From the IMG/VR virus record IMGVR_UViG_2778261256_000010, positions 1 to 14,526 of that record: a DNA stretch of 14,526 nucleotides; one strand, written 5' to 3'. The position numbers and the translations under genes were made by a program. Each line of letters starts with the position of its first letter. Position 1 is the first letter of the stretch. A model generated the notes under the pieces. That model saw only the letters and a list, made by a program, of their open reading frames with translations, ran no database searches and was not told where the DNA came from. Below are positions 1 through 14,526 of this stretch, piece after piece. Source of the stretch: a virus (lineage: Duplodnaviria > Heunggongvirae > Uroviricota > Caudoviricetes).

Positions 1-158
1 TCGAAACGTACTCTCAACAGTTCGCTTAGGCATGGAAGTTTTGCGGCATTCTGGCTACACAATAACAAGGGAAGACTTACTCGTGGCTGCAACCCTACTA
101 GCTCAAAATTTATTCACACATGGTTACGCTTTGGGGAAATTATGAGGGGATCTCTCAG
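1..158 (+). mobile_element. IS10-like (IS4 family) insertion sequence, 3' portion ending at the inside end
   Basis: Frame +2 reads ...RNVLSTVRLGMEVLRHSGYTITREDLLVAATLLAQNLFTHGYALGKL then TGA (143-145), which I recognise as the IS10 transposase C-terminus. The last 24 bp (135-158, ...GGAAATTATGAGGGGATCTCTCAG) are the reverse complement of the IS10 inside end CTGAGAGATCCCCTCATAATTTCC. Recognition is from memory. Confidence 0.8.
2..145 (+). CDS. IS10 transposase, C-terminal 47 codons (rest of gene lies left of the window)
   Basis: Open frame from the window edge to TGA at 143-145; sequence matches my recollection of the IS10 transposase tail. Confidence 0.75.
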   Translation, partial: RNVLSTVRLGMEVLRHSGYTITREDLLVAATLLAQNLFTHGYALGKL

Positions 159-386
159 TACTTTATCTCCCTTTTCTGCAGCTAGATCAATCCACTTCTT
201 GGCCTCAACTACATCCTTATCAAAACCATTGATACCATCAAAATAATTTGTCCCTAACTCACTTTGTGCTGCGGTATCCCCTGCGTTAGCGGCTTCTATC
301 AGCGTTTGTTTATTGTCTGCGTTAACGAATCCAGAGCTAAAAAGCAAAGTTAATGCCAGCAACGATGAAGATTTTATGAATTTCAT
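114..386 (-). pseudogene. Sel1-repeat secreted protein, 3'-truncated by IS10 (native part 159-386; 114-158 is read-through into IS10)
   Basis: Start at the second Met of the 114..431 ORF (MKFIKSSSLLALTLLFSSGFVNA, a signal-peptide-like N-terminus). One Sel1-like repeat (AQSELGTNYFDGINGFDKDVVEAKKWIDLAAEKGD) breaks off mid-repeat exactly at the IS10 end (158/159); the last 14 codons are IS10-derived. Confidence 0.6.
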
Positions 387-618
387 ATTTTTTGTTCTGT
401 TGATATAGGATGAACAGTTTAGACGCGGCAAGCGCCAAGTGTGCGAAAAGGGTACTTAAATTTAGTTTATCTGTCAGCTTTGTTAATATAGTTTATAGAT
501 GGTAAAGTTAACAGAAAACTAATCACAGCTAGAAATAATGACTTATTTAATTATTGTGACGCTGCACAAGATATACTTAAATTATAACAACGATAAATAT
601 AATTAAAGGGAAATCAAA

Positions 619-1032
619 ATGAGCAAAAATAAGCTGATTTTAACAGGAGCTTTATTGTCGTTATTTGCTTTAGTGGGGTGTAAACCCACCGACGAGAAGG
701 CTATTTCTCTGGGTCAACAGGCAATTGCGGATGATATGAAAGACCCCTCGTCTGTAATGTTTAGAAAAGATAAGTTCGTCAGGACTGATCATAATGACGG
801 GAGAGTTACCGGTTTTGTGTGCGGTGAATTAAACGCAAAAAATGGATTTGGTGCATACGTGGGCTACCACTCATATGTTGTCGAACTTGAAATGAAATCA
901 AAGGGCATGTTTTCTAAAGGTGTGGAATACAAAATCCTCATGAAGTCATTGGCACCAAACGAGCCTCATGATTTACAGCGTTATAAGCAGGTCTACAGAG
1001 AGATGTGCAACAGTGAGGCTGTAGCTCATTAA
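619..1032 (+). CDS. small lipoprotein, unknown function
   Basis: 137-aa ORF with RBS AAAGGGA 6 nt upstream; N-terminus MSKNKLILTGALLSLFALVGC has a signal peptide and lipobox (LVGC). Confidence 0.7.
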   Translation: MSKNKLILTGALLSLFALVGCKPTDEKAISLGQQAIADDMKDPSSVMFRKDKFVRTDHNDGRVTGFVCGELNAKNGFGAYVGYHSYVVELEMKSKGMFSKGVEYKILMKSLAPNEPHDLQRYKQVYREMCNSEAVAH

Positions 1033-1095
1033 TGTGAATGCCGGGCTTATCGTCTGCCTGGCTTCTTCGTATAGCAGACTATTGCGCCCGATATA

Positions 1096-1115
1096 ATAAG
1101 TAGATACTTACTTAT
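1096..1115 (+). repeat. 20-bp motif ATAAGTA-NN-TACTTACTTAT, copy 1 (identical arms to the copy at 4689-4708; near-copy at 11336-11355)
   Basis: ataagtagatacttacttat, 42 bp upstream of the 1157 start codon and immediately downstream of a perfect TATAAT (1092-1097). Confidence 0.55.
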
Positions 1116-1156
1116 TTTTCTGAAAGAATACTTTCATCTGTTAGTCAGGAGTTGCT

Positions 1157-1951
1157 ATGAAAGAAGAATTTCAGAAGTTAGTCTGCGACATCATCGACAA
1201 ATCCGGCGTAGAAATTGATACAGAAGAGCGCCAGAAGATTATCGACGAGGCGATCCAAACTGCACTGGAGCATATCGCCACGTCCGTGAGCACCGTACCT
1301 CTTTCGGAAGGCTCGAAATACATGCAGGTCTGGGTTCGTTTTGGAGAGTCCCCGGAGTTGCCAGGTGTTAAGCAGAAACGCGCGGCACTTGTGGCGTTCT
1401 CTCGCGAGATGAAAGACGCAACGGTCGAAGTGAGTACCGGTGCATGGTACGACGGCCGCATTGTCTACACCAATCAGACTGTGTGCGATAAAGGTGAACG
1501 GTTTGAGGATATTGTCGACGCAACTCTTCGCACGCTCAAAGTCAGAGCTGGTGTGGCGGATGATCCGTCCATCGCGGCGTTCCTGAGTATTGTCGAACAG
1601 TCTGAAGTTACCGAGCGCGTAACAGATCTGACAACTCCACCTGGTTTGCTGGAATTGGTGGTCAGTGGCGATATCAAAAAAGCCGTTGAGCGCATTCGTG
1701 AGGTGGAATACGGCATTATCTGCGATATGTGCCGCAGCGACTTAGACCTGGTGCGCATCATTGTCGACGCGGGTCAGGCATGTGACGGAGTACTCGCCAG
1801 TTTTGCAGGGCAAGTGGCTCGTCTGGCCAACGAATTACCCATGATTAAACAAGAAGCCAAATCCTACGCCGTTCATCGTACCAACGATTTACTGGACCCA
1901 TACCGGTTCGAAGCTGCTCAGGACAAAATGACTGGCTGGGCGACCTGGTAA
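1157..1951 (+). CDS. hypothetical protein (264 aa), no recognisable motif
   Basis: Long ORF with strong RBS AGGAG (1147-1151) 5 nt upstream, followed by its own terminator. Antisense ORFs 1171..1461 and 1474..1761 are taken as shadows. Confidence 0.7.
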   Translation: MKEEFQKLVCDIIDKSGVEIDTEERQKIIDEAIQTALEHIATSVSTVPLSEGSKYMQVWVRFGESPELPGVKQKRAALVAFSREMKDATVEVSTGAWYDGRIVYTNQTVCDKGERFEDIVDATLRTLKVRAGVADDPSIAAFLSIVEQSEVTERVTDLTTPPGLLELVVSGDIKKAVERIREVEYGIICDMCRSDLDLVRIIVDAGQACDGVLASFAGQVARLANELPMIKQEAKSYAVHRTNDLLDPYRFEAAQDKMTGWATW

Positions 1952-1969
1952 GCCTCGATAAAACATTTA

Positions 1970-1990
1970 GCCCCCTCGTGGGGCTTCTTT
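1970..1990 (+). terminator. Rho-independent terminator
   Basis: GCCCC-ctcgt-GGGGC stem-loop followed by TTCTTT, 19 bp after the stop of the 264-aa gene. Confidence 0.6.
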
Positions 1991-2032
1991 AAACTGCGAT
2001 TAATAAGTAAGTACAAGATTACGGTTAGAAGC

Positions 2033-2509
2033 ATGTCCACAAGAACAGATTTGTCGAAAATCCCGTCTATCTCCGGAAACAACGGTTATTCGCTGCGCTG
2101 CCCGGAAGTGAAGCTCAACGGCCATGAGGCTCATTGCAGCTATACAGTCTGCCAACACACGATCCTCGCCTATAAAGAAAAACGTCTCCCGGCTACATCG
2201 TTCCAGTCCTGCGCTGCGGCTATTGCTGCTGGTAAATGTCAGGCACTGAAAATGATGGTCGAAGAGATCCGCAAAGACGAACAGCTCTACTTCATCGATA
2301 TGTCTTCACTTATCAAAGAAGTGGAAGAGCAAAACGACCATGCCAGAACGCTCCCCCGGAAGCGAAACACCGCGACAATTGACAGTCTTATTCATCGCAC
2401 GAAGAAAACAGAACCTGCTAAATCCGAAACCAATCCCACCGATTCACTGGCGCCGATCACTGACGTGTACGCGGCACTCATTGAAGAAGCAACCAAAGAA
2501 AACACATGA
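2033..2509 (+). CDS. hypothetical Cys-containing protein (158 aa)
   Basis: ORF directly upstream of and co-oriented with the ligase; five Cys in the N-terminal half (C23, C35, C40, C60, C69) suggest a possible metal-binding module. No family recognised. Weak RBS. Confidence 0.55.
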   Translation: MSTRTDLSKIPSISGNNGYSLRCPEVKLNGHEAHCSYTVCQHTILAYKEKRLPATSFQSCAAAIAAGKCQALKMMVEEIRKDEQLYFIDMSSLIKEVEEQNDHARTLPRKRNTATIDSLIHRTKKTEPAKSETNPTDSLAPITDVYAALIEEATKENT

Positions 2510-2543
2510 AAACTCCCGAGCGACCGATGGAGGTTAAACACTA

Positions 2544-3866
2544 ATGGAAAAACTGATCGCCCTAAAGCACAAGCTGGATGCTATTAAAACGATGGGAACC
2601 AACGCCAAGAAAGAGGCGCTGGCCAATCTGGATGAATTTGAACAGAGCATGGTCTCGCTAATGCTCAATCCATTCATTCGATTCGGTGTGAAGAAGTACA
2701 AAGTGGCCGAGCCACTCGATACTTCCGTACCCAGCGACCAGAAGGTAGTAGATCTGCTGGAGAAGCTGGCAGCGCGCGAACTGACCGGGAACATCGCTAT
2801 TGCTGCTGTCGAATCACTCGTTGCCTCGATGTGCGCTGACGGGCAGGACGTGTTTCGTCGCTTCCTGCTGAAAGATCCGAAAGCCGGTGTCGGCATCAGC
2901 CTGTGCAACAAGGTGTTCGAAAACCCAATTCCGAAGTTTGAGGTACAGCTGGCGTCTCCGTACAAGGAGAAAGGCGACAAATACCCATTTAAACCAAATC
3001 CAAAGGCCAAGTGGCCAATGATCGGCAGTCTCAAACTCGATGGTCTCCGGGTTATCTGCGAAGTCATCGTGGACGAGGGTGAGGTCAATTTCCTGACGCG
3101 CACCGGCAATCCGATTACGTCACTCGATCACCTTAAACCAGCCATGCTGGAGCGGGGCAGACTCTCCGGCTTCAATCACATCTTCTTCGATGGAGAGGGC
3201 ACTGCAGGTACATTCAACCAGTCAGTGTCGGCGCTTCGTAAGAAGAACGTGAAAGCCATTGGTGCCGTTTACCACATTTTCGATTTCTTCTTACCGGAGT
3301 GGCGTGCTCAAGCAAAAAGCAAAGAGTACCTGAAGACCGGTATGAAGCTGAAAGAGCGCCTGGCTATGCTGGTGGCGTTGTTCCGCAACACTTGCGTGGA
3401 AGATTATGCGCAAGATATCCACCTTCATCCGTTCTACATCATCCATAGCCACGAAGATTTCATCGAACGTTTCATGAAGCGACTGGACGAGAATGAAGAG
3501 GGAGAGATGGACAAAGATCCGGATTCAGTTTACGAGTTCAAACGTACCCGCAGCTGGTGGAAGCTGAAAGACGAGGATTCAGAAGACGGTGAAATCATCG
3601 ACTTCGAGCCTGGCGATCCGGATTCTGGATTTGCGCATACGCTAGGCAAGATAGTGATTCGTCTGGAGAACGGCGTCATCGTTCGTGCCAGCGGTATCAA
3701 GCATAAATACCTGGATGAAATCTGGAACAATCAGGAGAAGTATCGTGGACGCATCGTTGAGGTTCACTGCCATGAGAAAACGCCAGATGGTAGCTTGCGT
3801 CATCCACGTCTGAAGTGGCCTAAATGTCTTCGAGATACCGAAGATCGTATTGGAGATAAAGAATGA
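2544..3866 (+). CDS. ATP-dependent DNA ligase, phage T4 gp30-like
   Basis: RBS GGAGG upstream. Nucleotidyltransferase motif I KLDGLR (K164, 3033-3050), FFDGEG, WWKLK, and the C-terminal LRHPRLKWPKCLRD (motif VI-like). The N-terminal domain aligns by eye with T4 ligase (ARELTGNIAIAAVESL...ISLCNKVF...LASPYKEKGDK versus T4 TRKLTGNAAIEELTGY...VSIANKVW...LASSYDEKGINK). Confidence 0.85.
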   Translation: MEKLIALKHKLDAIKTMGTNAKKEALANLDEFEQSMVSLMLNPFIRFGVKKYKVAEPLDTSVPSDQKVVDLLEKLAARELTGNIAIAAVESLVASMCADGQDVFRRFLLKDPKAGVGISLCNKVFENPIPKFEVQLASPYKEKGDKYPFKPNPKAKWPMIGSLKLDGLRVICEVIVDEGEVNFLTRTGNPITSLDHLKPAMLERGRLSGFNHIFFDGEGTAGTFNQSVSALRKKNVKAIGAVYHIFDFFLPEWRAQAKSKEYLKTGMKLKERLAMLVALFRNTCVEDYAQDIHLHPFYIIHSHEDFIERFMKRLDENEEGEMDKDPDSVYEFKRTRSWWKLKDEDSEDGEIIDFEPGDPDSGFAHTLGKIVIRLENGVIVRASGIKHKYLDEIWNNQEKYRGRIVEVHCHEKTPDGSLRHPRLKWPKCLRDTEDRIGDKE

Positions 3867-4042
3867 TGCTCGGCTGGATGTTTGTATTTTTAGTCGTCGG
3901 CATTGTTATCGGAAGTCTGGTTATGTCCAGCTGTATCCACGATTACGTAAAAGCCGGTGTCATGCAAAGGCGAGGTCGTATTTATCGCATAGTAGATATC
4001 ACGGACACACTGAAGGAGATTAAGGATGATCATGTTAAGTAA
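3863..4042 (+). CDS. small membrane protein (59 aa), not in the supplied ORF track
   Basis: ATG at 3863 overlaps the ligase stop (ATGA); RBS GGAGA 7 nt upstream; MMLGWMFVFLVVGIVIGSLVMSS is a predicted TM helix; stop TAA 4040-4042. Translated by hand. Confidence 0.45.
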   Translation: MMLGWMFVFLVVGIVIGSLVMSSCIHDYVKAGVMQRRGRIYRIVDITDTLKEIKDDHVK

Positions 4043-4238
4043 ACGAGAGAAGGAAACCCTGCGTGAAATTAGCAAGTGGAAGGAGTTCTACGCCAACTGG
4101 AAGCCGAAGACCAGAGCCAAACTGGAGCGCATGAATCTTGTCGCCAACGTTTCTCCAAAGGGATGTATTGAGAACTATCAACTGACTGAAAAAGGTTATT
4201 TGTTGTTGCAGCAATTGACTGAGGCGGGGGCGCACTGA
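4026..4238 (+). CDS. small hypothetical protein (70 aa)
   Basis: Strong RBS AAGGAG (4013-4018) 7 nt upstream of ATG 4026; soluble, charged sequence; stop overlaps the next start. Confidence 0.55.
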   Translation: MIMLSKREKETLREISKWKEFYANWKPKTRAKLERMNLVANVSPKGCIENYQLTEKGYLLLQQLTEAGAH

Positions 4239-4390
4239 TGATTCCATACATCATTTTATCTTTTACTGGTGGCGTGGGCCTCGGCCTCGCAATCTGCCGC
4301 GCCCTGGTCCAGCAGGAACTGCAAACCAAAACACTTCGTGTCGGTAAGCGTGTGTATCGGGTTGTTCACGAGACGGGAGTGCGAAAATGA
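4238..4390 (+). CDS. small membrane protein (50 aa), not in the supplied ORF track
   Basis: ATG 4238 overlaps the upstream stop (TGATG); MIPYIILSFTGGVGLGLAICRAL is a TM helix; stop TGA 4388-4390 overlaps the ATG of the next gene (4387). Confidence 0.4.
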   Translation: MIPYIILSFTGGVGLGLAICRALVQQELQTKTLRVGKRVYRVVHETGVRK

Positions 4391-4692
4391 GCAATTTGAC
4401 TTCCTTCGACTGGTGGCTGGCAACCTACCTTGTGGCGGCCGGCTTCGGATTTGCCTTTTACATTGGTCAGTTAATCGTAAAGCTACTGCTGATCAGATTC
4501 GCCAGCCATAAACGCATAGACGACGGTCTGTGGCGTCTGGGGTCCCTGTTAGAGACGCATTACGGCGAACTCAAGGAAAACGAAACTATCACTATTCAAG
4601 CGAAGCGTTTTACCGCCATCATCACGAGAACTCCGGAACAAAAGGGGAGCCTGATCAAAAAGATAGCAACTAAACGCATCACAGATAGATAA
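4387..4692 (+). CDS. small membrane protein (101 aa)
   Basis: N-terminal TM segment WWLATYLVAAGFGFAFYIGQLIV followed by a charged C-terminal domain; translationally coupled to the preceding small gene. Confidence 0.6.
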   Translation: MSNLTSFDWWLATYLVAAGFGFAFYIGQLIVKLLLIRFASHKRIDDGLWRLGSLLETHYGELKENETITIQAKRFTAIITRTPEQKGSLIKKIATKRITDR

Positions 4693-4708
4693 GTATTTAC
4701 TTACTTAT
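4689..4708 (+). repeat. 20-bp motif ATAAGTA-NN-TACTTACTTAT, copy 2
   Basis: ataagtatttacttacttat, overlapping the stop codon of the 101-aa gene; followed by CTAATAT...TATAAGAT, which is shared with copy 3. Confidence 0.55.
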
Positions 4709-4884
4709 CTAATATGTATAAGATCACTTTGTTTTCGTTGAGATGCGACTGTTTGAACGTTAAATATAACTGCAAACGAAGATGCATACCTGGCAGTAGC
4801 CTAAGAAGCCAAACACCAGCGAGGTCAGTTTCCAGCCTCGTCACCAAAATGGGACACACTGAGCGAGTGTGATTGCAGAACGCA

Positions 4885-4916
4885 GAATAGGGCATATTGC
4901 ACCATCCATGCCCTAT
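4885..4916. other. perfect 10-bp-stem hairpin (AATAGGGCAT / ATGCCCTATT, 12-nt loop)
   Basis: Direct reading; no U-tract after it, so not a classical terminator. Confidence 0.5.
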
Positions 4917-5071
4917 TCAATGAAGTAACAGAATGGGCGGTTGGTTTCATCATTCCATTCACCCATCCCGGTTTCAGCTGACCGTCCATTCTGTTACGTC
5001 ATTTCCATTACTTATGTCGTTTATACTTGGGTTAAAAGCGGCGACGTAACCCGGCTGACTTGGTTAGTCAG

Positions 5072-5189
5072 CACATAACGTTGAGATCACTGATTTTTCT
5101 TAAAATCATACAGGCGATTCCACATAGCTGTAGCGACTGATCAATATGTTGGGTTGAACATTAATCGGTTCAGTGATCTCAACGTTGTG
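5072..5189. repeat. 17-bp perfect inverted repeat (5076-5092 / 5169-5185; 20 of 21 if extended) flanking a 76-bp spacer
   Basis: AACGTTGAGATCACTGA and its exact reverse complement TCAGTGATCTCAACGTT; three GATC sites within the element. Confidence 0.55.
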
Positions 5190-5435
5190 AAAGCAGGATT
5201 AATTAACCCTCTAGTGAAAACATTGTTGCCTTTATTGCCCCTGACTTCACAACATGTATGATTCCATACATCCAATAAGATCGAAGAATCTAACGGCAAT
5301 CAACCACCGAGAAAGATTCCAGATCTTCGCTCATATGAGCGAGCCACATACCTCGTCTGGCACTAACGTAAAGTGCAAGTTGCGGGAAAGTTTCTGGCTG
5401 CCTGGTTGTCCATAAGCTAGTACCGCCGCGAAAAT

Positions 5436-5510
5436 GATGGTGTAGCTCAGTGGTAGAGCGGTTGACTGTTAATCAACTGGTCGGTGGTTCGAGTCCACCC
5501 ACCATCGCCA
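5436..5510 (+). tRNA. tRNA-Asn (anticodon GTT at 5468-5470)
   Basis: Folded by hand into a full cloverleaf: 7-bp acceptor stem GATGGTG/CACCATC, D-arm GCTC-AGTGGTA-GAGC, anticodon stem GTTGA/TCAAC with loop CTGTTAA, T-arm GGTGG-TTCGAGT-CCACC, discriminator G, encoded CCA. Confidence 0.9.
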
Positions 5511-5663
5511 ACATAGCGCTGAACGGTTTGGATTCGCCACCACCGTCCGAACGAAAGACTCCGCAAATGTCGCCAGACCGTTCAGCGCTGTGATAGACAC
5601 GGCAGACGTTTTTTAACCATTGCTTCTAAGCATCGTAGCAACACTTTTTTCAGCGCAAAATCC

Positions 5664-5685
5664 AAAGGGGCTTCGGCCCCTTTTT
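5664..5685 (+). terminator. Rho-independent terminator downstream of the tRNA
   Basis: AAAGGGGC-TTCG-GCCCCTTTTT: GC-rich stem, tetraloop, T-run. Confidence 0.7.
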
Positions 5686-5764
5686 GCTATCAAGTCGCAT
5701 ATGCAACCAACTTTTTTTAGCTTATAGTTAAGTTCAGTAGTAGAATGCTACGCTTCGTCGAGAA

Positions 5765-6313
5765 ATGACGATTATGGAGTCTATCGTGAAATTTAAAATC
5801 CAGCATTTGCAGGCAGCAGTGGCACTGGTTCTTGCCAGTATCCAGCCGCAACCCAAAGCGGTTGCGTGTCAGCCTACGATTGTAGAACGGGTTTATGAGA
5901 TGGGCGCTAGAGTCAACAAAACCGACATCAGTGATCTTACAGCTGCTCTCAATGAATTGGCTAAAGAACTGCGTTCAAGCCGCGCTGAACTTGCTCATTA
6001 TGCTGACACTGACTTCTTTGCTGCTATCAAAGTAGCGGAAGAAATTAAGAATCAAACTATTCATGTAGCCGGTATCGCAGAATCTTTTGTTTTGATGTTA
6101 CCTGAAAAAGACGTCATCATGTCTTACGACAAAAACACTGTTGAGTTTGCGTTTTTTAAGGCTATTAAAATGGTCAGTATTGCGACCAAAAACTATCTCA
6201 ATCTGATTGATCAGATTACACGCACTTCTGTAGTGCGTGACTCTGGTGTCAACCTTTTAGCCATGAACCATCTATTAGAGACTGGCAACAAGGCTGCGGC
6301 TAAATGGCATTAA
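5765..6313 (+). CDS. putative antitoxin-like partner of the YafO-family toxin (182 aa; true start uncertain)
   Basis: ORF ends 10 nt inside the toxin gene (6304-6313 overlap), the usual toxin-antitoxin coupling. No recognisable Phd/YefM or RHH sequence signature; much larger than E. coli YafN (~97 aa). Confidence 0.45.
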   Translation: MTIMESIVKFKIQHLQAAVALVLASIQPQPKAVACQPTIVERVYEMGARVNKTDISDLTAALNELAKELRSSRAELAHYADTDFFAAIKVAEEIKNQTIHVAGIAESFVLMLPEKDVIMSYDKNTVEFAFFKAIKMVSIATKNYLNLIDQITRTSVVRDSGVNLLAMNHLLETGNKAAAKWH

Positions 6314-6720
6314 CGGCTGAATACAGTCAAGTTACGTGGGATGATTTTTTTCAGCCCACTTTTGTCGTTTACCCTGACCTAGAAAGTCAGCTCAAATCCG
6401 AGTTCATTACTTACAAATCAACTGGCGCACCATCTAATCTTCTTGGACGAGATGCGCCATTTGACTTCCCGCCGTTCGCCGTTGATGCTAATGTCCAGCA
6501 TATTCACGTCAATTTGCATTTCCAGCTTACCTGGAACGCAAGGCAAGAGAACTACAACCGAACCTCAAACCACTATCTCGTTTATACCGAGCACATGTGG
6601 GATAGCGGGCGTTTTTTGCTGATGGGGCTAGTCACTCCAGCTCACGATCGTATGCCAGCAAGAGATACTAGGTTGCTCAGCTACTTCGCTGAAGTCGCAG
6701 AAGGTTTCCATTCTAGCTGA
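6304..6720 (+). CDS. yafO: YafO-family type II toxin (ribosome-dependent mRNA interferase family)
   Basis: Aligned by eye to my recollection of E. coli YafO: FITYKSTGAPSNLLGRDAPFD vs FISYKRDGVLPDIFGRDALYD; VQHIHV vs VAHIHL; RTSNHYLVY vs RTNDEAHLVY; FLLMGLVTPAHDRMPARD vs WLLIAILKPEPHKLARD. Confidence 0.7.
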   Translation: MALTAEYSQVTWDDFFQPTFVVYPDLESQLKSEFITYKSTGAPSNLLGRDAPFDFPPFAVDANVQHIHVNLHFQLTWNARQENYNRTSNHYLVYTEHMWDSGRFLLMGLVTPAHDRMPARDTRLLSYFAEVAEGFHSS

Positions 6721-6922: not shown

Positions 6923-6973
6923 TCAAAAACAGTCTATTTTACTGTTGATCATACAAAAACTGAGGCCTAACAC

Positions 6974-6992: not shown

Positions 6993-7020
6993 AAAACAGG
7001 CTTCACTCAGTGAGTGGACT

Positions 7021-8124
7021 ATGAAAAACACTTTTGATAAAGCACGCGCAGCAGAAAACACCTCTAGAGAAGCCATCGAGTATCTCGAACGCGCTTCCGG
7101 TTTGTCAGCAGTGTCGACCACCAATTTCGACGGTGACATGTCGTTTTCTTCCGCATTCATGTTATTCACTCGCTTATCTTTGCTGATAACGAGACGTCGA
7201 CCTGAAATAGCTGTTCATTGTATTTTGATACATGTAATGCCGCATATCTGTGAAGTAAAAGTAAGTGACATTAGTAGGGTTTTAGTCAACCAGCTGGTGA
7301 ACCCATTAATACTTGAGGGCAAGATCGTCCAGGGCAGACGTGTGTTCTCGCTGATGAAGCAGTTTCTCAGTTGGTGTGCATTTCAGGGCTTAATTGATAC
7401 ATCCCCATTGAACGATATGTCGCTTAACAGAGTAGCCGGTGGCGCGAAGCCCACGCCGCGCGAGCGCAAACTGACCGACGCAGAGGTCTGGGTCTTTTGG
7501 AATGTATGGGACTACTTCAACGTATGTGAGGGTACAAAGTGGGCGGCCAGATTATGCCTTGTAGCGGCCAGACGACCAGATGAAGTGCTCCGAGCTAAAA
7601 GATCAGAATTCAACCTCGAATATAATTTATGGAATCAAGGAACGAGGAATAAATCGGCTCGCCAGCACTCGTTACCATTAAGCCCGCTAATGCGCAAATG
7701 TGTTGAGGAGCTGATCAAATACGGAAAAGGCAGCCAGTGGCTTGTTCCTTCAAACAAGAAACAGGGTGAGGATGTGCCAATGTCTAAGGTGGCCATATCA
7801 CAGGCGTTGAGAAGGATTTTAGAACGTCCAGAGTTGATGGAGCTTGAGCCATTTACCCCCCGAGATTTGCGTCGTACTGCGCGTAGTTACTTCCCCGCGT
7901 TAGGCATAAGTCAGGAGGTATCCCGCAAAATTATGAACCACAGTCTTGAGGGGATAGATCGAGTATACGATCGACACGATTATATAGACGAGATGCGAGA
8001 CGCCTTAAACAGTTTTTCGGCGTACATCGCATCAATCGTAGAGAAACAGGATTTAGAGGAGATAGATCATAAGTTCAAGGGAGATCGACTCGCTACTGAG
8101 CTAATCCGTGTAAATTTCTCATAG
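7021..8124 (+). CDS. tyrosine recombinase/integrase, P4-like catalytic core; arm-binding N-terminal domain absent, first ~60 aa unrelated
   Basis: Core-binding-like segment from about aa 70 (HVMPHICEVKVSDISRVL...VFSLMKQFLSWCAFQGLIDTSPLNDMS); catalytic signatures ARRPDEVL (box I Arg), FTPRDLRRTA (box II, with R where His is usual), NHS, and RVYDRHDY (catalytic Tyr). Confidence 0.65.
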   Translation: MKNTFDKARAAENTSREAIEYLERASGLSAVSTTNFDGDMSFSSAFMLFTRLSLLITRRRPEIAVHCILIHVMPHICEVKVSDISRVLVNQLVNPLILEGKIVQGRRVFSLMKQFLSWCAFQGLIDTSPLNDMSLNRVAGGAKPTPRERKLTDAEVWVFWNVWDYFNVCEGTKWAARLCLVAARRPDEVLRAKRSEFNLEYNLWNQGTRNKSARQHSLPLSPLMRKCVEELIKYGKGSQWLVPSNKKQGEDVPMSKVAISQALRRILERPELMELEPFTPRDLRRTARSYFPALGISQEVSRKIMNHSLEGIDRVYDRHDYIDEMRDALNSFSAYIASIVEKQDLEEIDHKFKGDRLATELIRVNFS

Positions 8125-8517
8125 CGACTTGATTGCCTCAACAACCCGCTCCGACGCACCACGTTGGTCACCGAAACGTCGACGGAAGGCTTCCAGAACT
8201 AGTTTTTCATCTTTAGTCAGAGGGGCTGTGCCTTCGTCGCGAAAAAACGCTAACAGCTCTGGATGACGCTCTTCCAGCACCATTAGCATCAATCGGACCG
8301 AATCGGCATCCAATGCTTTAGCCAACGCTCTGACCTTGTCGATCGGAAGCGGGATTTTGCCGCTCTTGATAAGTGAAAGATTGTTAGGGTTTTTATAGCC
8401 TGCTTCTTTCGCGATGGTCGCCTGGCTTTTCGGAGAAATCGCGATTAAAGCGTCAATGTAAGCAGCGTAGCGACCTACTTTAGCTTCTGTTGTTTCGTTG
8501 GTAGCCATAATTATCAA
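8119..8517 (-). CDS. helix-turn-helix (XRE/Cro-like) transcriptional regulator
   Basis: SQATIAKEAGYKNPNNLSLIKSGKIPLPIDKVRALAKAL is a canonical HTH; convergent with and overlapping the recombinase 3' end by 6 bp. Start may be the second ATG (MATNE...). Confidence 0.65.
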   Translation of the reverse strand: MIIMATNETTEAKVGRYAAYIDALIAISPKSQATIAKEAGYKNPNNLSLIKSGKIPLPIDKVRALAKALDADSVRLMLMVLEERHPELLAFFRDEGTAPLTKDEKLVLEAFRRRFGDQRGASERVVEAIKSL

Positions 8518-8764
8518 CCTGCGTGTTTTGATTTTATTTGGTAAGTGCTTACTGATATTACATCAAAGGTTAGTGTTGTAAAGACTTATCTATTTTTTTA
8601 CGTAGGTTTACTGACCGCAAAAGGCTTCATTAATAGACAACTATCTAAAAAATAACTCATTTAAGAACTTAAAACTAAGTTGTATTTGATATATAAGTAT
8701 TCCGTATTGATACAATAGGTAGTAGTATTGCAAGGCATTTACGTGTTCAGTTGGATGATATGAA

Positions 8765-8977
8765 ATGAAAAAAATAACTTCTAATTTGATCGCCCTTGAG
8801 GTCGGACATACGGTTTCAATTGACGATGATGGGGCAGCAGCCATACTCACTGAACTGCCAACAAAGTCTTTGTTACTTGACATGAAAGACGCAACCGCAT
8901 ACATCTTTGAGCTAAAGGGCAAGTGCTTCACTCTCATCAATACCGGCTGCGGTTCAGTAGCCGTCCGCACAAGTTAA
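8765..8977 (+). CDS. small hypothetical protein (70 aa)
   Basis: RBS-like GGATGA upstream; sits just upstream of the vWA gene; could be spurious (AT-rich surroundings). Confidence 0.35.
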   Translation: MKKITSNLIALEVGHTVSIDDDGAAAILTELPTKSLLLDMKDATAYIFELKGKCFTLINTGCGSVAVRTS

Positions 8978-9002
8978 CACCACCCCTCCCATCCTCTCTA
9001 GC

Positions 9003-9037
9003 GCCTGTACGAACAGATTAGATGCCTGTTCGTACAG
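9003..9037. promoter_or_regulatory. tandem near-palindromic sites GCCTGTACGAACAG / GCCTGTTCGTACAG (candidate operator pair)
   Basis: CTGTACGAACAG (9005-9016) and its exact reverse complement CTGTTCGTACAG (9026-9037), 9-bp spacer, about 55 bp upstream of the preferred start of the vWA gene. Confidence 0.45.
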
Positions 9038-9090
9038 TGATAAATTACGCACATCAGAAAACAAATTGTTTTAACAACAAGGGAATTCTA

Positions 9091-11319
9091 ATGTCCAAAA
9101 AAACCACCAAAGCTGTACTGAAAGAGGTGCAGGATTTTCGCGACTGTGTAAAACGAGTTGTAGCGATGCTTTCAGGTAAACAGATACCTGTTGCAGAACG
9201 AGGCAATGAAGCATATGTCCGCTATAACCGGCGCGGCGAACCAGTGCTGGTAAACATCCCATCTATACCGGACGACGCGTCGCCAACCCTCATGAACGCA
9301 GTGCGTGGTTTTCTCGACCATGAGGTGGCCCATATTCTCTTTACTGAACCGAAAGTCGCAATGCAGATGCGCGAAAGAGGAAAGGCTCCGTCTACGGGGC
9401 TTTGGAATGCGCTGGAAGACGTTTTTATTGAACGCAGAATGGGGCAGGTCTTTAACGGAACCCGGCGTAATTTACTTGCAACACAGAGTCTGGTTATCGA
9501 CAAATACTTCAGGAATAAAGTACCAGAAGCGGTTTTAGCCTGTCACGGAGACCAGCGTGAATTGTTTTTGAAATTCTTCCTTTGCCCGGTCGTCCGCGCC
9601 TGGGATGGACAAAGCCCCTTCATCGATTTTATGGAAGAACACTGGCGCCTTATCGAGAGGCCGGTAGCCTTACTAAAGGAGCATGGTATAGACGTGGCCG
9701 TTCGCAATATGTCGAACACTGAGGATTGCGTGAAGGTCGCTGCTGCTATAGCCCAAATCATGCAGGATATGAAAGACAAGCCAGAGGGCAAATTACCAGA
9801 ACTTAAATCATCTGCCAGAAAGCCGTCGGAGAGCAAAGACGAGTCCGAGGAAACGCCAGAATCAGGTGACGAGCCGTCTCATGGTGACTCTGCATCTAAG
9901 CCTGCCAAAGGCGAAGGCGATGACAAGGAAGAACGAGAAGATGATGCATCAGAAGAGGAAGATTCTGGGGATTCCGATTTGCCTGATTCGTTAGATAAGG
10001 ACTTACCTACACACGTTAAAGATATTAGTGATACAGAAAGTAAATATACAGAAGCAGGCCACGAAGAGTCAGGAGACACCCCAGAATCCGATGCTATCGG
10101 CATGAAATCAAGTGACTCTGACACCGATGGTGATGGCGGTGAGGACTCCGATACTGATCGTGGGGAAACTGAAGAAGACGTCGAAGGCAAAAAAAATAAA
10201 GATGGTGCGGAAGTGCCCAAAGACAGTGAGTCTGGCTTTGTTCCTGCGCCGGATGAAATGACTCTGGAGGAGGCGCTAAAGGCGCTCGACGAGATGGAAG
10301 ACGGAATCGGTGAAATGACCGAAGACGCACTGTCGGCCACCATCAGCAAAGAGCTTATGAGCGTCTCACCTTCTGATTATCGGCCATACGATCGATCATA
10401 CGACTTTATCGGGTTGATTGATGGAGCCGAAGAGCATGTGAAGCGCACCAGAAAGACGTTCGGTGCAATACCAATGCACTCACCAGTCGACCGCTACCGT
10501 ATGGTGCCAGAAGGCAGAAAACTCTTTGAACTGAAAATCGAAAAACATCTGTCTGCAGGCGTTTCTTCGACGCTGGCCAAAGACCTGGAGCGGGCCATCG
10601 CCAGCCGCAACCGAGTTCAGTTTATACCTGGTCAGAGGCGTGGGCGGATACATGGCGCGAGCCTGTATCGTCTGGCAATGAACGACGACCGAGTGTTCCG
10701 CAAGAAGGAAGACCATAGAGCGGTGAACGCGTGTGTCCAGCAAGTCATCGACTTGTCCGGCTCAATGGATGGCGTGAAGATTCAACTGGCCCTAGCCAGT
10801 GCCTATACCATTGCGGATGCTTTAGATCGTATCAATGTCCCCAACATCATCACCGGCTTTACCACGTTCGGTAGCCCAGATTATGAAACCAGGTCGAAGC
10901 GCGGGTTTACACGCTTCGAGGCGCTCATGCTGCCCATTATCAAAAACTGGAATGAGAAAGCAAACTCTCCAGAGATCCGTGCTCGCATGGGATGCGTATG
11001 TGAGACGTTCCCCCTGCTCAATAACGTCGATGGTGAGAGTGTCGCGCAACTGGCTACCCTGTTTGCAGGGCGAATGGAGGACAAAAAGATCATGCTGGTT
11101 ATGAGTGATGGGGAGCCATGTGCTACAGGTAGTGGATTCCATCAGCATTTACGAACCGTCACCAAAGAAATTGAGACCTTGAGCGACATCGAACTGATGG
11201 CTATCGGCATTCTGACCGACGAACCACGGCGTTACTACAAAAATTACGCACTGGTTAACAGTGTTGAAGAGTTAGGGCCGTCAGTCGTCACTGAGTTATC
11301 TCGTATCATTCTTGGGTAA
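9091..11319 (+). CDS. CobT/BchD-like architecture: N-terminal HExxH (zincin-like) module, ~170-180 aa acidic Ser/Asp/Glu-rich linker, C-terminal von Willebrand factor A domain
   Basis: Preferred start ATG 9091 (RBS AAGGGA 6 nt upstream); the track ATG 9022 lies inside the palindrome and lacks an RBS. HEVAH at 9319-9333 with Glu in NALEDVFIERR about 25 aa downstream (gluzincin-like spacing). vWA MIDAS DLSGS (10750-10764), then GFTT and MSDGEP. Confidence 0.75.
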   Translation: MSKKTTKAVLKEVQDFRDCVKRVVAMLSGKQIPVAERGNEAYVRYNRRGEPVLVNIPSIPDDASPTLMNAVRGFLDHEVAHILFTEPKVAMQMRERGKAPSTGLWNALEDVFIERRMGQVFNGTRRNLLATQSLVIDKYFRNKVPEAVLACHGDQRELFLKFFLCPVVRAWDGQSPFIDFMEEHWRLIERPVALLKEHGIDVAVRNMSNTEDCVKVAAAIAQIMQDMKDKPEGKLPELKSSARKPSESKDESEETPESGDEPSHGDSASKPAKGEGDDKEEREDDASEEEDSGDSDLPDSLDKDLPTHVKDISDTESKYTEAGHEESGDTPESDAIGMKSSDSDTDGDGGEDSDTDRGETEEDVEGKKNKDGAEVPKDSESGFVPAPDEMTLEEALKALDEMEDGIGEMTEDALSATISKELMSVSPSDYRPYDRSYDFIGLIDGAEEHVKRTRKTFGAIPMHSPVDRYRMVPEGRKLFELKIEKHLSAGVSSTLAKDLERAIASRNRVQFIPGQRRGRIHGASLYRLAMNDDRVFRKKEDHRAVNACVQQVIDLSGSMDGVKIQLALASAYTIADALDRINVPNIITGFTTFGSPDYETRSKRGFTRFEALMLPIIKNWNEKANSPEIRARMGCVCETFPLLNNVDGESVAQLATLFAGRMEDKKIMLVMSDGEPCATGSGFHQHLRTVTKEIETLSDIELMAIGILTDEPRRYYKNYALVNSVEELGPSVVTELSRIILG

Positions 11320-11335
11320 TAGCTTACCCTTAAAA

Positions 11336-11355
11336 ATAAGTAACTACTTACTATA
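11336..11355 (+). repeat. 20-bp motif, copy 3 (ATAAGTA-AC-TACTTACTATA)
   Basis: 17 bp after the vWA gene stop and about 60 bp upstream of the zinc-finger gene; followed by CTAATAT...TATAAGAT as at copy 2. Confidence 0.5.
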
Positions 11356-11413
11356 CAGCCTAATATATTTCTATAAGATATACCCCACAAACGACAAACA
11401 GTAAGGAAAAAAC

Positions 11414-11680
11414 ATGACCGCTACTGCACTACAGCAAGAAGAACATTTGCCGGAAGCCATCGTCTGCAAGTGGTGTGGCAAATCCTTTCATTACCTGAAA
11501 TCCCATATCTCTATGGGCCGTTGCGAGAATATTCCTGAGTCTGCGAAGGGTCTGGACGTGGACGAAGTGGTGAAGATGTACACCTCTGCGTTTCCAGATG
11601 AACCAACGATCTCTCGCACGGCACTGGCCAAACTCAATGAGAAGGGGTCGTTTGCGGGAGGGGGCGGAATCCTACGCTAA
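11414..11680 (+). pseudogene. Ros/MucR-type zinc-finger mini-protein, 3' end replaced by the Tn3-family inverted repeat (native part 11414-11643)
   Basis: RBS AAGGA 6 nt upstream. IVCKWCGKSFHYLKSHI matches the Ros/MucR zinc-finger IVCLECGGSFKSLKRHL, and SRTALAKLNEKG matches ARSRLAKEMGLG. From codon 78 the ORF is encoded by the transposon IR (GSFAGGGGILR). Confidence 0.5.
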
Positions 11681-11681
11681 G
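11644..11681. repeat. Tn3-family 38-bp terminal inverted repeat (GGGG...ACGCTAAG)
   Basis: GGGGTCGTTTGCGGGAGGGGGCGGAATCCTACGCTAAG; outer GGGG at 11644; the tnpA stop (CTA on +, 11677-11679) lies inside the IR, as is typical of the family. Confidence 0.8.
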
Positions 11682-14449
11682 GCTTTGGCCAGCGATATTC
11701 TCCGGTGAGATTGATGTGTTCCCATCCGAGCGGCGAAACATGGGCCAAGAGATCGGGCGATAGCAGCTTTCCATCGCGTTTCTGGTTTGCAACGACCTCG
11801 CCGAGCTTCATGGTGTTCCAGAAGATGATGATGGCGGCGAGCAGATTCATGCCGGCGATGCGGTAATGCTGGCCTTCGGCGGAACGGTCGCGGATTTCAC
11901 CGCGGCGGTGGAAGCTGATTGCCCGCTTCAGCGCATGATGAGCTTCGCCTTTGTTGAGCCCGATCTGGGCACGCCGTTGGAGTTCGGCATCCAGAATCCA
12001 GTCGATCATGAACAGGGTGCGCTCGACGCGACCGACTTCCCGCAGGGCTGTCGCGAGCTCGTTCTGCCGCGGATAGGAGGCGAGTTTCCGCAGAATCTGG
12101 CTTGGCGCGACGGTCCCGGCAGCAATGGTGGCGGCGATGCGCAGGATGTCGGGCCAATTGCGCTCGATCATGGCTTGGTTGACCTTTCCGCCGATCAACG
12201 CTCGCAGGTGCGCCGGGGCGGCCGACGGATTGAACGCGTAGAGCCGTTTGGATGGCAGGTCGCGGATGCGCGGAGCGAACCGGTAGCCGAGAATGGCACA
12301 TGCGGCAAAGACGTGATCGGTGAAGCCGCCCGTGTCGGTGAACTGCTCGCGGATATGGCGTCCAGCATCGTTCATCAGCAGGCCATCGAGGATGTAAGGC
12401 GCTTCGCTTGCCGTTGCAGGAATCACCTGGGTTGCGAACGGCGCATATTGGTCGGAGACGTGGCTATAGGCTTTCAGGCCCGGGGTATTGCCATATTTCG
12501 CGTTGACCAGGTTCATGGCCTCACCTTGCTCTGTAGCGACGAAGAACTGTCCGTCGCTCGAAGCCGACGTGCCCATGCCCCAGAACCGGGCCATGGGTAA
12601 CGCTGCCTGTGCCTCGACCACCATGGCCAGCGCCCGGTCATAGGCTTCGCCCTCGACATGCCACCGTCCAATGCGGATCAATTCCCAGAAGGTGTGGGTG
12701 TTTGTCGCATCCGCCATTTTGCGCAAGCCGAGGTTGATCCCTTCCGCCAAGATAACGTTCATTAGCCCGATCCGGTCAGCGCAGGGTGCTCCTGTGCGCA
12801 GATGGGTGAACGCTTCGGTGAAGCCGGTCGCCGCATCCACCTCCAGCAGGAGATCGGTGATGCGCGTGGGCGGGATCTGCTTGTAGAGATCGAGCACCAG
12901 ATCTTCGGCGCCTGTCGGCGCGGCGGCTTCGAGTTTCTCGATATGCAGAACGCCGTTTTCAATCGACCCGCCCGGGATCGTGCCTGCGCGAGCGGCACGG
13001 CCAAGCTCGCGCAACCGCATGTCGAGGCGAGCTTGCCGGTCTGCCAGCCATTCCTCCGGCCGCAATGGCACAGCGAGACGACCGCCTTCCGCGATGGATT
13101 GTGCCGGAACGAGTGCGTGTTTCAGATCGCCATAGCGCCGGGACCTAGTAAGCCAGACATCTCCGGAGCGGAACGCATCGCGCAGATGGAACAGCACCGC
13201 GATCTCCCATAGGCGAGCGTCGCCAGCCCTCTGGGCCCGAAGGTGGCGATGCCATTTCGAGCTGGGCCGCAAGAAGCTGGTCATCGCGGCATCGTTCAAA
13301 CCGGTACGAAGGGCCGTCACCGCTTCCAGAAGCGGCAGTGCAACGGGCGCAGCTCGCAGATCGAGCAGGCGCAACATGCGTGGAGCGTATCGGCGGAAGC
13401 GGTGATAACCGTCGAGCACATGATTGAGCGGATCGTCGGCCATGGTGGCGGTCAGCCTGGTTGCCATTGCAACAAGGGTTTTTAAGCCGTCCCACCCTGA
13501 CCCACTCGCGATGACATCGCCCAGCGGCTGGCCATCATCCTGTGCATCGACCAGGGCGCCCCCGATCTCGGCGAAGGATTTCAGGGTGTCACGCACCACC
13601 CCCGCTTCGTCTGCGACCTTTGCATGGCAAATACGCTCCGAAGCACGGTAGAGACGGCCGACGATCCGGTCGTGGGTTTCGACCACTGCGTCGGCCAACA
13701 TCGCCTGCCATTCCGAGACGCAAACAGCCAAGATCGCAAGCCGCCTGTCCTCCGGGAGATCGCGCATGCCGTCGGCATAATACCGTTCACCCTGCCTGCG
13801 CAGACGAGTCACCCGATGGGCAGGAACGCCGGCAAGCAGATCCTCGGGGAGATCGATGCGTTGCAGATATTCGAGCCGGTCGAGCAGCCGGTTGGCCGAC
13901 GAAGAGTTCGAGCCAGGCTCGAACTGGCGCAGCCACACAAAACGGGTCACCCGATCATCAGCCGTCTCCTCGAGCAATGCCAGCAACTGTTCTCGGATCG
14001 ACATAGGCAGCCGACTGGCGATCCTCGTCTCGATGCGTCGCTCGGCATCGACGAGAGCCGCGGCACAAAGCCGCTCGATCGTGGATGTCGCGGGAAGGAC
14101 AGTGCGGGTGCGTCGGCACTCGGCTACGAAGCGACGGGCGATATCCTCGTTCGACACCGCCATCTCGGCTTCTCGGAACAACCATTCCTTCAGCTCGCTC
14201 GCACCACGTCCGGAGAAGGTGCGGAAGCCGTAGAGCCCCCGTAACTCGGCAAGATGCTCGTGCCGTGTTTCCTCGCGGGCAGCATAGTCTACGAGATCGT
14301 CGGCACCCAGGCCAAGCTGCGCTCCGATAAATTCGATGACCTCTGCAGGGATCAGTTCGCCTGGAGCCAGCACCCGGCCGGGATAGCGCAGGACACACAA
14401 TTGCAGGGCGAAGCCGAACCTGTTGTGAGCGCGCCGACGCAGCCTGATA
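11644..14449 (-). mobile_element. Tn3-family transposon remnant (one IR plus 5'-truncated tnpA; no res, tnpR or cargo in view)
   Basis: High-GC block bounded by the 38-bp IR on the left and the IS10 outside end on the right. Confidence 0.8.
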
Positions 14450-14505
14450 CTGATGAATCCCCTAATGATTTTTATCAAAATCATTAAGTTAAGGTAGATA
14501 CACAT
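11677..14505 (-). CDS. tnpA: Tn3-family transposase TnpA, 5'-truncated (first ~18 codons of the ORF are IS10-derived; native part 11677-14449)
   Basis: 942-aa ORF; C-terminus ...LSPLGWEHINLTGEYRW is the Tn3-family signature; N-proximal SIRLRRRAHNRFGFALQLCVLRYPG matches Tn21 TnpA near residue 37-60 (recalled), so about 35 N-terminal residues are missing. Opposite-strand ORFs in this block are GC-rich shadows. Confidence 0.9.
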   Translation of the reverse strand: MCIYLNLMILIKIIRGFISIRLRRRAHNRFGFALQLCVLRYPGRVLAPGELIPAEVIEFIGAQLGLGADDLVDYAAREETRHEHLAELRGLYGFRTFSGRGASELKEWLFREAEMAVSNEDIARRFVAECRRTRTVLPATSTIERLCAAALVDAERRIETRIASRLPMSIREQLLALLEETADDRVTRFVWLRQFEPGSNSSSANRLLDRLEYLQRIDLPEDLLAGVPAHRVTRLRRQGERYYADGMRDLPEDRRLAILAVCVSEWQAMLADAVVETHDRIVGRLYRASERICHAKVADEAGVVRDTLKSFAEIGGALVDAQDDGQPLGDVIASGSGWDGLKTLVAMATRLTATMADDPLNHVLDGYHRFRRYAPRMLRLLDLRAAPVALPLLEAVTALRTGLNDAAMTSFLRPSSKWHRHLRAQRAGDARLWEIAVLFHLRDAFRSGDVWLTRSRRYGDLKHALVPAQSIAEGGRLAVPLRPEEWLADRQARLDMRLRELGRAARAGTIPGGSIENGVLHIEKLEAAAPTGAEDLVLDLYKQIPPTRITDLLLEVDAATGFTEAFTHLRTGAPCADRIGLMNVILAEGINLGLRKMADATNTHTFWELIRIGRWHVEGEAYDRALAMVVEAQAALPMARFWGMGTSASSDGQFFVATEQGEAMNLVNAKYGNTPGLKAYSHVSDQYAPFATQVIPATASEAPYILDGLLMNDAGRHIREQFTDTGGFTDHVFAACAILGYRFAPRIRDLPSKRLYAFNPSAAPAHLRALIGGKVNQAMIERNWPDILRIAATIAAGTVAPSQILRKLASYPRQNELATALREVGRVERTLFMIDWILDAELQRRAQIGLNKGEAHHALKRAISFHRRGEIRDRSAEGQHYRIAGMNLLAAIIIFWNTMKLGEVVANQKRDGKLLSPDLLAHVSPLGWEHINLTGEYRWPKP

Positions 14506-14526
14506 CTTGTCATATGATCAAATGGT
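14450..14526 (+). mobile_element. IS10-like outside end (5' portion of a second IS10 copy, continuing past the window)
   Basis: CTGATGAATCCCCTAATGATTTTTATCAAAATCATTAAGTTAAGGTAGATACACATCTTGTCATATGATCAAATGGT matches my recollection of the IS10 outside end and pIN/pOUT region with a few substitutions. Confidence 0.8.

Follow-up and report, generated by a model that had tools for sequence, protein, structure and literature searches.

The window, meaning the whole 14,526-nt stretch analysed here, begins and ends in IS10 sequence. The window is the entire contig NNVY01000075.1 (14,526 bp) of the short-read E. coli draft assembly GCA_002485945.1, and therefore no DNA lies past either edge. It is a piece of an SSU5-like phage-plasmid plus one Tn5393 arm, which together make up the 14.3-kb interval between the IS10 ends (Table 1). 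Every component is a known element, and together they form an ordinary mosaic of mobile elements; no new type of element is involved.

Table 1. Coordinates of the features found in the window, with the comparisons on which they are based.
Feature	Position	Strand	Remarks
IS10 3′ end (IS10 nt 1172-1329), IS10-Right type	1-158	+	158/158 to IS10R of pCS0010A; 6 mismatches to IS10L
sel1/TPR remnant with IS10 run-on	114-386	-	90-aa fusion ORF, stop at 114; sel1 part 159-386 = codons 1-76 of 381
9 bp adjoining IS10 inside end, TACTTTATC	159-167		Presumed one copy of IS10 target duplication; uninterrupted in IS10-free reference plasmid
SSU5/pHCM2-like phage-plasmid segment	159-11643	+	98.9-99.5% identity to ~70-230-kb IncFIB-type E. 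coli plasmids; 91% to phage SSU5
ATP-dependent DNA ligase	2544-3866		
tRNA-Asn	5436-5510		
YafO toxin	6304-6720		Upstream partner 5765-6313
Tyrosine integrase	7021-8124		
XRE-like regulator	8119-8517	-	
CobT-like protein	9022-11319		
cobS-like AAA ATPase, 5′ remnant	11414-11643	+	76-77 of 411 codons; split by Tn5393; remainder on NNVY01000085.1
Tn5393 target-site duplication (5 bp), GAGAA	11639-11643		Also after the other inverted repeat, NNVY01000085.1 2074-2078; cobS resumes in register
Tn5393 38-bp terminal inverted repeat, tnpA end, GGGGTCGTTTGCGGGAGGGGGCGGAATCCTACGCTAAG	11644-11681	+	Identical in pCS0010A
Tn5393 tnpA without codons 1-39 of 961	11677-14449	-	0 mismatches to pCS0010A over 11644-14449; Pfam DUF4158 and DDE_Tnp_Tn3
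One copy of 9-bp target duplication from Tn10 entry into Tn5393 tnpA, AGCCTGATA	14441-14449		Repeated across Tn10 in pCS0010A
IS10 outside end (77 nt), IS10-Left type	14450-14526	+	77/77 to IS10L; 4 mismatches to IS10R; begins CTGATGAATCCCC

IS10 ends and the limits of the contig

The initial annotation had placed an IS10 end at each edge of the window, in direct orientation. Both ends are IS10, each running outside-to-inside on the + strand, and chance cannot account for matches of such length. The termini are exact, with the outside end CTGATGAATCCCCTAATGATTTT... at 14450 (+) and the inside end CTGAGAGATCCCCTCATAATTTCCCC... at 137-158 (reverse complement) forming imperfect inverted repeats. 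The left stub carries the final 46 transposase codons and stop intact (2-142) and terminates at 158 in the inside-end sequence ...GGGGATCTCTCAG, which includes a GATC site. A complete IS10 comprises 1329 bp and encodes a 402-aa DDE transposase, of which the window holds 158 and 77 nt. The two ends claimed by the annotation are thus present, whereas its two IS10 copies are deduced from stubs of unlike allelic type. It was also right that both junctions cut genes (sel1 on the left, a Tn3-family tnpA on the right) and that the flanking 9-mers differ, which rules out one simple insertion. The Tn10 arrangement, in which IS10L and IS10R lie inverted around tetR, tetA(B), tetC and tetD, is not seen in the window, where the IS10 ends are direct and surround phage-plasmid DNA.

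The stubs resemble k=77 assembler overlaps that reach into collapsed repeats. Over its first 77 nt the left stub is common to the IS10L and IS10R alleles, which first diverge at window position 78, and the length of the right stub is exactly 77 nt; both window ends stop 77 nt into sequence common to other IS10 copies. A sibling contig, NNVY01000085.1, likewise ends 76-77 nt into IS1, and none of this differs from standard k=77 de Bruijn behaviour. Because the assembler was unable to cross the repeat, the contig runs between two different IS10 copies, stopping in each. An apparent IS-flanked segment in a draft contig is usually an assembler halting at collapsed repeats, and the two ends may stem from unrelated events.

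The phage-plasmid backbone, Tn5393 and the right junction

SSU5/pHCM2 synteny (ligase, tRNA-Asn, integrase and CobT/CobS-like genes) was found in the portion covered, namely the 11.5-kb backbone segment and part of the sibling contig. The backbone also holds hypothetical genes (annotation by Pfam), and the tRNA was the sole Rfam match. Pfam recognised no replication gene in 159-14449, and a self-replicating 15.6-kb plasmid was rejected on this ground. The backbone, and the presence of strA-strB in a transposon- and IS-rich region, resemble the SSU5/pHCM2-like phage-plasmids with resistance transposons described previously (Pfeifer et al. 2022, PMC9600943). However, the insertion sites here (the cobS-like gene and sel1) are new, and the replicon is known from open contigs. 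The locus is a further case of an SSU5-like phage-plasmid gaining a transposon for streptomycin resistance (Tn5393, here with part of Tn10) and being struck again by IS10.

The cobS-like remnant runs on into an 88-aa fusion ORF ending at 11680. The other Tn5393 arm lies on the sibling contig, which contains strA-strB (APH genes), the second inverted repeat (2036-2073; two mismatches to the copy at 11644-11681, read by eye), GAGAA and the rest of cobS. The hallmarks of Tn5393 were all found, namely terminal inverted repeats, a 5-bp duplication on both sides, a DDE_Tnp_Tn3 tnpA and strA-strB. Tn5393 inserted into the cobS-like gene through ordinary Tn3-type transposition and left GAGAA behind. 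The strA side, with an ISEcp1-unit tail and a truncated IS1133, resembles that of K. pneumoniae plasmid pLAP2_020035, to which the first 2,073 nt of the sibling contig are 100% identical. The same IS10L is present in pLAP2_020035, from which tet and IS10R have already gone via an inside-end deletion.

As a side observation, Tn5393 has a clean 5-bp duplication despite its own transposase gene being split by IS10. Either a defective Tn5393 moved with the help of a transposase supplied in trans, or recombination later swapped its interior; the observation bears on the continued spread of ‘dead’ resistance transposons.

Judged by sequence identity, the right junction is the known insertion of Tn10 in Tn5393 tnpA, of the Tn5393h/l lineage. 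Both Tn5393h and Tn5393l are Tn5393 with Tn10 inserted in tnpA (PMC10333595). These transposons (pCVM29188_146, R64) match the window base for base at the tnpA′/IS10-Left junction, in the 9-bp AGCCTGATA, in the inverted repeat and over 2.8 kb of tnpA. However, the window's copy lies within the cobS-like gene of a phage-plasmid, and this junction is absent from PLSDB and from complete E. coli genomes. In pCS0010A, AGCCTGATA recurs at the opposite end of Tn10, where it follows the IS10R outside end. The tnpA′/IS10L junction is 100% identical in the plasmids among the matches listed, and 463 plasmid records cover at least 80% of window 11500-14526. At this junction tnpA is lengthened by ~19 IS10-derived codons to give a 942-aa ORF ending at 14505. 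The right IS10 is the IS10-Left of the ancestral Tn10 insertion in tnpA, inherited together with Tn5393. In PLSDB, no Tn10 variant was found whose outside end at the ′tnpA side is of IS10L type, the best matches all being of IS10R type; variants with an IS10L-type inside end adjoining tetD do exist.

The left junction in sel1

At the exact point where the window turns to IS10, reference plasmids read ...GCATAATATGC followed directly by TACTTTATC... (...ATATGC/TACTTTATC...). Neither this junction nor that between the backbone and the Tn5393 inverted repeat was found among 72,556 plasmids (PLSDB) and 5,426 complete E. coli genomes; whole-window searches of these two collections matched the parts but neither novel junction. 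ORFs fused across both novel junctions occur on NNVY01000075.1 only, and this contig alone holds an exact copy of the 90-aa sel1-IS10 product. We infer separate histories for the two junctions, the right one being inherited and widespread and the left specific to one strain.

The left IS10, which is of IS10-Right type at its inside end, would therefore represent a separate strain-specific event. This was most likely a simple cut-and-paste insertion of IS10 in sel1, in the same orientation as IS10-Left by chance. Single IS10-Right transposition was reportedly about ten times commoner than Tn10-promoted rearrangements in Kleckner's Tn10 work. If the strain belongs to the pLAP2_020035 lineage, its neighbouring Tn10 has no IS10R, and the left copy must therefore have come from elsewhere. 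As part of the best overall explanation we favour simple insertion tentatively, giving it somewhat less than an even chance.

Simple insertion predicts TACTTTATC and the sel1 remainder beyond the outside end of the left IS10, and the reading is weakened because neither has been seen: predicted-product look-ups and exact-pattern scans did not recover a contig carrying them. The look-ups used 15 predicted sel1-remainder products (five sel1 variants in up to three forms, i.e. IS10L-sel1 fusion, IS10R-sel1 fusion and internal-Met start). Fourteen of these were absent from the protein collection, the fifteenth (P0015) was present only on two unrelated metagenome scaffolds, and none was found for assembly GCA_002485945.1. 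This negative is uninformative since sel1 is highly mosaic. Exact-pattern scans of the metagenome and species-representative genome collections for the observed and predicted junctions gave 0 matches. Moreover, should the contig ends be k=77 graph ends, just one flank of the IS10R-type inside end exists in the genome and there is no IS10R/tetD junction. Such a lack counts against simple insertion, because an extra copy beside an intact Tn10 would not predict it. Direct orientation is also only a 50% outcome for an independent event, whereas an inversion promoted by Tn10 forces it.

Alternative origins of the boundaries

Tn10-promoted deletions and inversions, arising by intramolecular transposition of inside ends, were reportedly described by Kleckner, Reichardt and Botstein in 1979. 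Here, the inside ends of the Tn10 in Tn5393 tnpA would have attacked sel1 on the same replicon, with loss of tet and inversion of the 14.3-kb interval. The IS10-Right inside end would become joined to sel1′ and the IS10-Left outside end would stay at tnpA′, giving direct repeats; the other product junction would read IS10L inside end, GATAAAGTA, rest of sel1. This geometry, worked by hand, matches the window exactly in allele pattern and orientation, and the 158-nt left stub, in implying a one-flank IS10R inside end and no tetD junction, is as expected if tet was lost. There are also precedents. In strain ER2796 a Tn10 inversion/deletion left two directly repeated IS10 and a 9-bp duplication in inverted orientation, and DH10B has an 11-kb IS10-mediated inversion (PMC4444293); the inside-end deletion in pLAP2_020035 started from the same IS10L. 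As in Tn10-promoted rearrangements generally, the window has an IS10 inside end on new DNA. However, no reciprocal junction, inverted 9-bp copy or loss of tet was observed here, and simple IS10 insertion is an equal or better fit. After a pure inversion only one flank remains at the IS10L outside end, so that a k=77 contig should reach ~184 nt into IS10L and not 77; an added gene-conversion step or an additional IS10 copy is needed to explain the 77-nt stub. Moreover, the left end of the sibling contig fits a pLAP2-type lineage that has already lost IS10R, and the predicted IS10L-sel1 fusion proteins were not found in the protein collection, although the strain's sel1 allele may differ from the five used. 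Inside-end events are also said to be rarer than single IS10 transposition. On balance we regard inversion as a rather unlikely, if serious, rival. It is unlikely, too, that the interval is specifically an inside-end inversion product within the phage-plasmid, in which tet(B) was discarded and a new 17-kb direct-repeat unit, IS10R-(phage-plasmid genes and Tn5393 arm)-IS10L, was formed. Were this so, recombination could release the unit as a circle, or the unit could travel as a composite element, and IS10 would have remodelled a phage genome still subject to packaging and viral transfer.

The length of the right stub bears on a further rival. Since it is exactly 77 nt, an IS10L-type outside end should have a second flank, and no simple two-copy model, simple insertion included, fits without a hybrid IS10 or a third copy. 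A single hybrid IS10, with an L-type outside end and an R-type inside end, would make the contig a 15.6-kb circle or a tandemly amplified unit; such a circle or unit would have come from an inside-end deletion or from direct IS10 copies recombining with each other. The end orientations fit circular closure, and plasmid pIncFIB of E. coli L-I1 provides a precedent at the same tnpA′ junction, where a hybrid IS10 (L-type at 24-425, R-type at 903-1300) lies beside a flipped tet region. However, a free circle with no recognisable replication gene would be expected to disappear. Another contig, which runs on into other DNA, carries what remains of Tn5393 and cobS, placing the interval in a larger replicon, and the contig ends still demand one or more additional IS10 copies elsewhere in the genome. 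We therefore consider a lone hybrid IS10 improbable. Least credible of all is an assembly artefact, i.e. a chimeric contig or misattached stub with no IS10 truly adjoining sel1: the assembly is a short-read draft and the left junction occurs in one assembly only, but the junction coincides precisely with the last base of the inside end, the six IS10R alleles in the stub form a coherent set, exact IS-end junctions do not arise by chance in de Bruijn graph contigs, and the contig's other novel junction is backed by the matching 5-bp duplication on the sibling contig.

As a consequence of these events, sel1, cobS and tnpA are all inactivated. The direct IS10 pair is a potential substrate for recombination or for a composite transposon. 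Deletion or circularisation of the interval by homologous recombination, which the initial annotation had raised, is mechanistically possible, as it is for any direct repeats.

IS10 stubs and the limits of the draft contig

The left stub of the window terminates ...GGGGAAATTATGAGGGGATCTCTCAG, which is the IS10 inside end in reverse complement, and the right stub opens with CTGATGAATCCCCTAATGATTTT, the IS10 outside end. On the + strand both run from outside end to inside end, bearing out the two IS10 ends in direct orientation proposed in the initial annotation. As references we used the two IS10 copies of the complete Tn10 in Salmonella Kentucky plasmid pCS0010A, IS10-Left (IS10L) and IS10-Right (IS10R), which have 17 differences between them. 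The left stub matched IS10R (158/158, against 6 mismatches to IS10L) and the right stub IS10L (77/77, against 4 mismatches to IS10R). Therefore, the stubs are not interchangeable copies of one sequence.

Two ORFs made by novel junctions, a 90-aa sel1'-IS10 fusion and an 88-aa fusion of cobS' to the Tn5393 inverted repeat (IR), were subjected to exact-sequence look-up. Each was on one record only, NNVY01000075.1 (assembly GCA_002485945.1), the 90-aa protein being listed under E. coli in RefSeq. This record is 14,526 bp long and spans the window from 1 to 14526, and thus there is no contig DNA beyond the window. Judging by where they fall, both window ends resemble ends of a de Bruijn graph built with k=77: exactly 77 nt of the contig precede position 78, the first base distinguishing IS10L from IS10R, the right stub likewise measures exactly 77 nt, and a sibling contig stops 76-77 nt inside IS1. 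Such graph ends would mean that the IS10R-type inside end is single-flanked in the genome (by sel1'), that an IS10L allele is present elsewhere in it, and that two or more different sequences flank an IS10L-type outside end. Flanking by two IS10 ends was a real observation and its interpretation partly right, but the segment so described is a draft contig that stops at collapsed repeats on either side. The junction at its right end is inherited and well known, and that at its left end stems from an ordinary IS10 event; all components are known elements, only the particular insertion sites being new.

The phage-plasmid backbone

The sequence between the left stub and Tn5393 shares 98.9-99.5% identity with plasmids of E. 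coli and E. fergusonii that are typed as IncFIB and measure about 70-230 kb, and 91% with Salmonella phage SSU5. It is therefore an SSU5/pHCM2-like phage-plasmid backbone.

Positions of features in the window
Feature	Position	Remark
Left IS10 stub	1-158	IS10 3' end
Phage-plasmid backbone	159-11643/4	
ATP-dependent DNA ligase		backbone gene
tRNA-Asn (GTT)	5436-5510	conserved with phage SSU5
YafO toxin pair		backbone
Tyrosine integrase and adjoining XRE-like regulator		backbone
CobT-like protein	9022-11319	
cobS-like AAA ATPase		first 76-77 codons only
GAGAA	11639-11643	upstream of Tn5393 IR
942-aa ORF	11677-14505 (-)	IS10-tnpA fusion
Right IS10 stub	14450-14526	IS10 5' end

The tRNA gene sits within a stretch otherwise poor in ORFs (about 4700-5760), and in the CobT-like protein the CobT and VWA domains are separated by a long, acidic region of low complexity, rich in Ser, Asp and Glu (about residues 265-420).

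Tn5393, Tn10 and the right junction

Database matches to the backbone all end at 11644, the start of the 38-bp Tn5393 IR GGGGTCGTTTGCGGGAGGGGGCGGAATCCTACGCTAAG, which is followed by Tn5393 tnpA on the minus strand. We predicted the ORF for the cobS remainder downstream of the other Tn5393 end and looked it up in a protein collection, where a 304-aa form was present. Contigs with this form include NNVY01000085.1 (8,490 bp), a sibling contig from the same assembly as the window. Here an ISEcp1-unit tail, truncated IS1133, strA, strB, the IR (2036-2073), GAGAA and the cobS remainder are succeeded by a second Tn3-family transposon, ars-like genes and an IS1 end. GAGAA precedes the IR in the window and follows it on the sibling contig (IR plus GAGAA, 2036-2078), so the insertion carries the 5-bp duplication expected for Tn3-family transposition. 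Tn5393 truly transposed into the phage-plasmid. The duplication is clean although IS10 interrupts tnpA at the ancestral position. Either Tn5393 was already defective and was moved in trans, or it was still intact on insertion and exchanged its interior by recombination afterwards.

On the sibling contig (3090-8490), the second transposon (IR GGGGTCAGTTTGGATATCG..., tnpA of 995 aa) starts directly after the cobS-like stop, and an ArsP-like permease, an ArsR-like regulator and the IS1 end follow; the phage-plasmid region is thus densely populated with mobile elements. The strA-proximal Tn5393 (1-2073) is 100% identical to K. pneumoniae pLAP2_020035 (positions 14894-16966 of stretch L006), including the ISEcp1-unit tail inserted in IS1133. 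Because the AT-rich hairpin sequence at the contig start is not repetitive, a gap in coverage is a likelier cause of the break than a repeat.

Positions 11644-14526 share 100% identity with the E. coli, Salmonella and Klebsiella plasmids listed among the matches; with window 11500-14526 as query, coverage was at least 80% in 463 records. In pCS0010A and pLAO8 a complete Tn10 (IS10L, gltS/jem genes, tetR, tet(B), tetC, tetD, IS10R) has its left edge at the right junction; past it come tnpA codons 1-39, followed by tnpR and IS1133. The 9 bp AGCCTGATA adjoin both Tn10 outside ends, and the two tnpA halves joined give a 961-aa TnpA. The same structure has been described for Tn5393h (pCVM29188_146) and Tn5393l (R64), both Tn5393 with Tn10 in tnpA, an insertion that 'likely annihilates' Tn5393 mobility (PMC10333595). 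The window tnpA is without codons 1-39, and an ATG in the IS10L outside end, in frame, lengthens the remnant to 942 aa. This ORF could encode a predicted, N-terminally altered transposase; the identical fusion must exist in all plasmids with that junction.

Downstream of the IS10L adjoining the tnpA remnant the region is highly plastic. The IS10R/'tnpA junction is kept in only 35 PLSDB records. E. coli L-I1 plasmid pIncFIB has a flipped tet region and, adjoining tnpA', an L/R hybrid IS10 (L-type at 24-425, R-type at 903-1300), and the IS10-Left of pLAO8 has IS10-Right alleles at positions 410-1106. These mixed alleles and the tet inversion point to gene conversion and crossover between inverted IS10 copies. 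In pLAP2_020035 a truncated ISEcp1 directly adjoins the inside end of IS10L, interpreted as a Tn10-promoted deletion.

The left junction in sel1

Of the 381 codons that the sel1/TPR gene has in reference plasmids, the window keeps the first 76, and the break coincides exactly with the terminal base of the IS10 inside end; across this site reference plasmids, without IS10, read ...ATATGC followed directly by TACTTTATCTCCC... The junction was absent from all PLSDB plasmids and complete E. coli genomes, exact junction scans of metagenome and species-representative collections gave 0 matches, and it appears strain-specific. None of the predicted sel1-remainder proteins (n=15, five alleles) was found for GCA_002485945.1 in the protein collection, and a sibling contig with the sel1 remainder was not reached through the neighbouring genes, which are too common.

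The evidence on the origin of this junction is split between three readings, all of which fit. Tentatively, an IS10 copy would have entered sel1 by simple insertion. This is favoured because of the identity between the sibling contig and the pLAP2 lineage, which no longer has IS10R, and because single IS10 transposition has the higher rate. It predicts that sel1(rest)-TACTTTATC adjoins the outside end of the left IS10, in the order sel1(rest)-TACTTTATC-CTGATGAATCCCC. Intramolecular transposition by the Tn10 inside ends, with an inversion outcome, is rather unlikely, even though its geometry, IS10R(inside end)-target-interval-(outside end)IS10L in direct orientation with tet lost, gives exactly the observed allele pattern. 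Moreover, the graph ends leave the IS10R inside end no second flank, and such events have sequenced precedents in ER2796 and DH10B (PMC4444293). The prediction here is 'tnpA(5')-AGCCTGATA-IS10R at left and IS10L-CTCTCAG-GATAAAGTA-sel1(rest) at right. Every model, simple insertion included, has to posit a further IS10L-type outside end to account for the 77-nt right stub. A circle or tandem unit closed by one hybrid IS10 shares this need and is improbable, the interval between the stubs having no replication gene, which argues against a free circle. Artefact or other explanations take up the remainder.

In SSU5-like elements (L016-L025) the cargo varies at the sel1 slot, which lies downstream of the primase gene of the phage-plasmid; other genomes have Fic with a Phd antitoxin and a fimbrial gene, a sulfatase, DprA or a radical-SAM gene there. 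The sel1 gene is itself mosaic and frequently truncated, one 159-aa form being found on 182 contigs.
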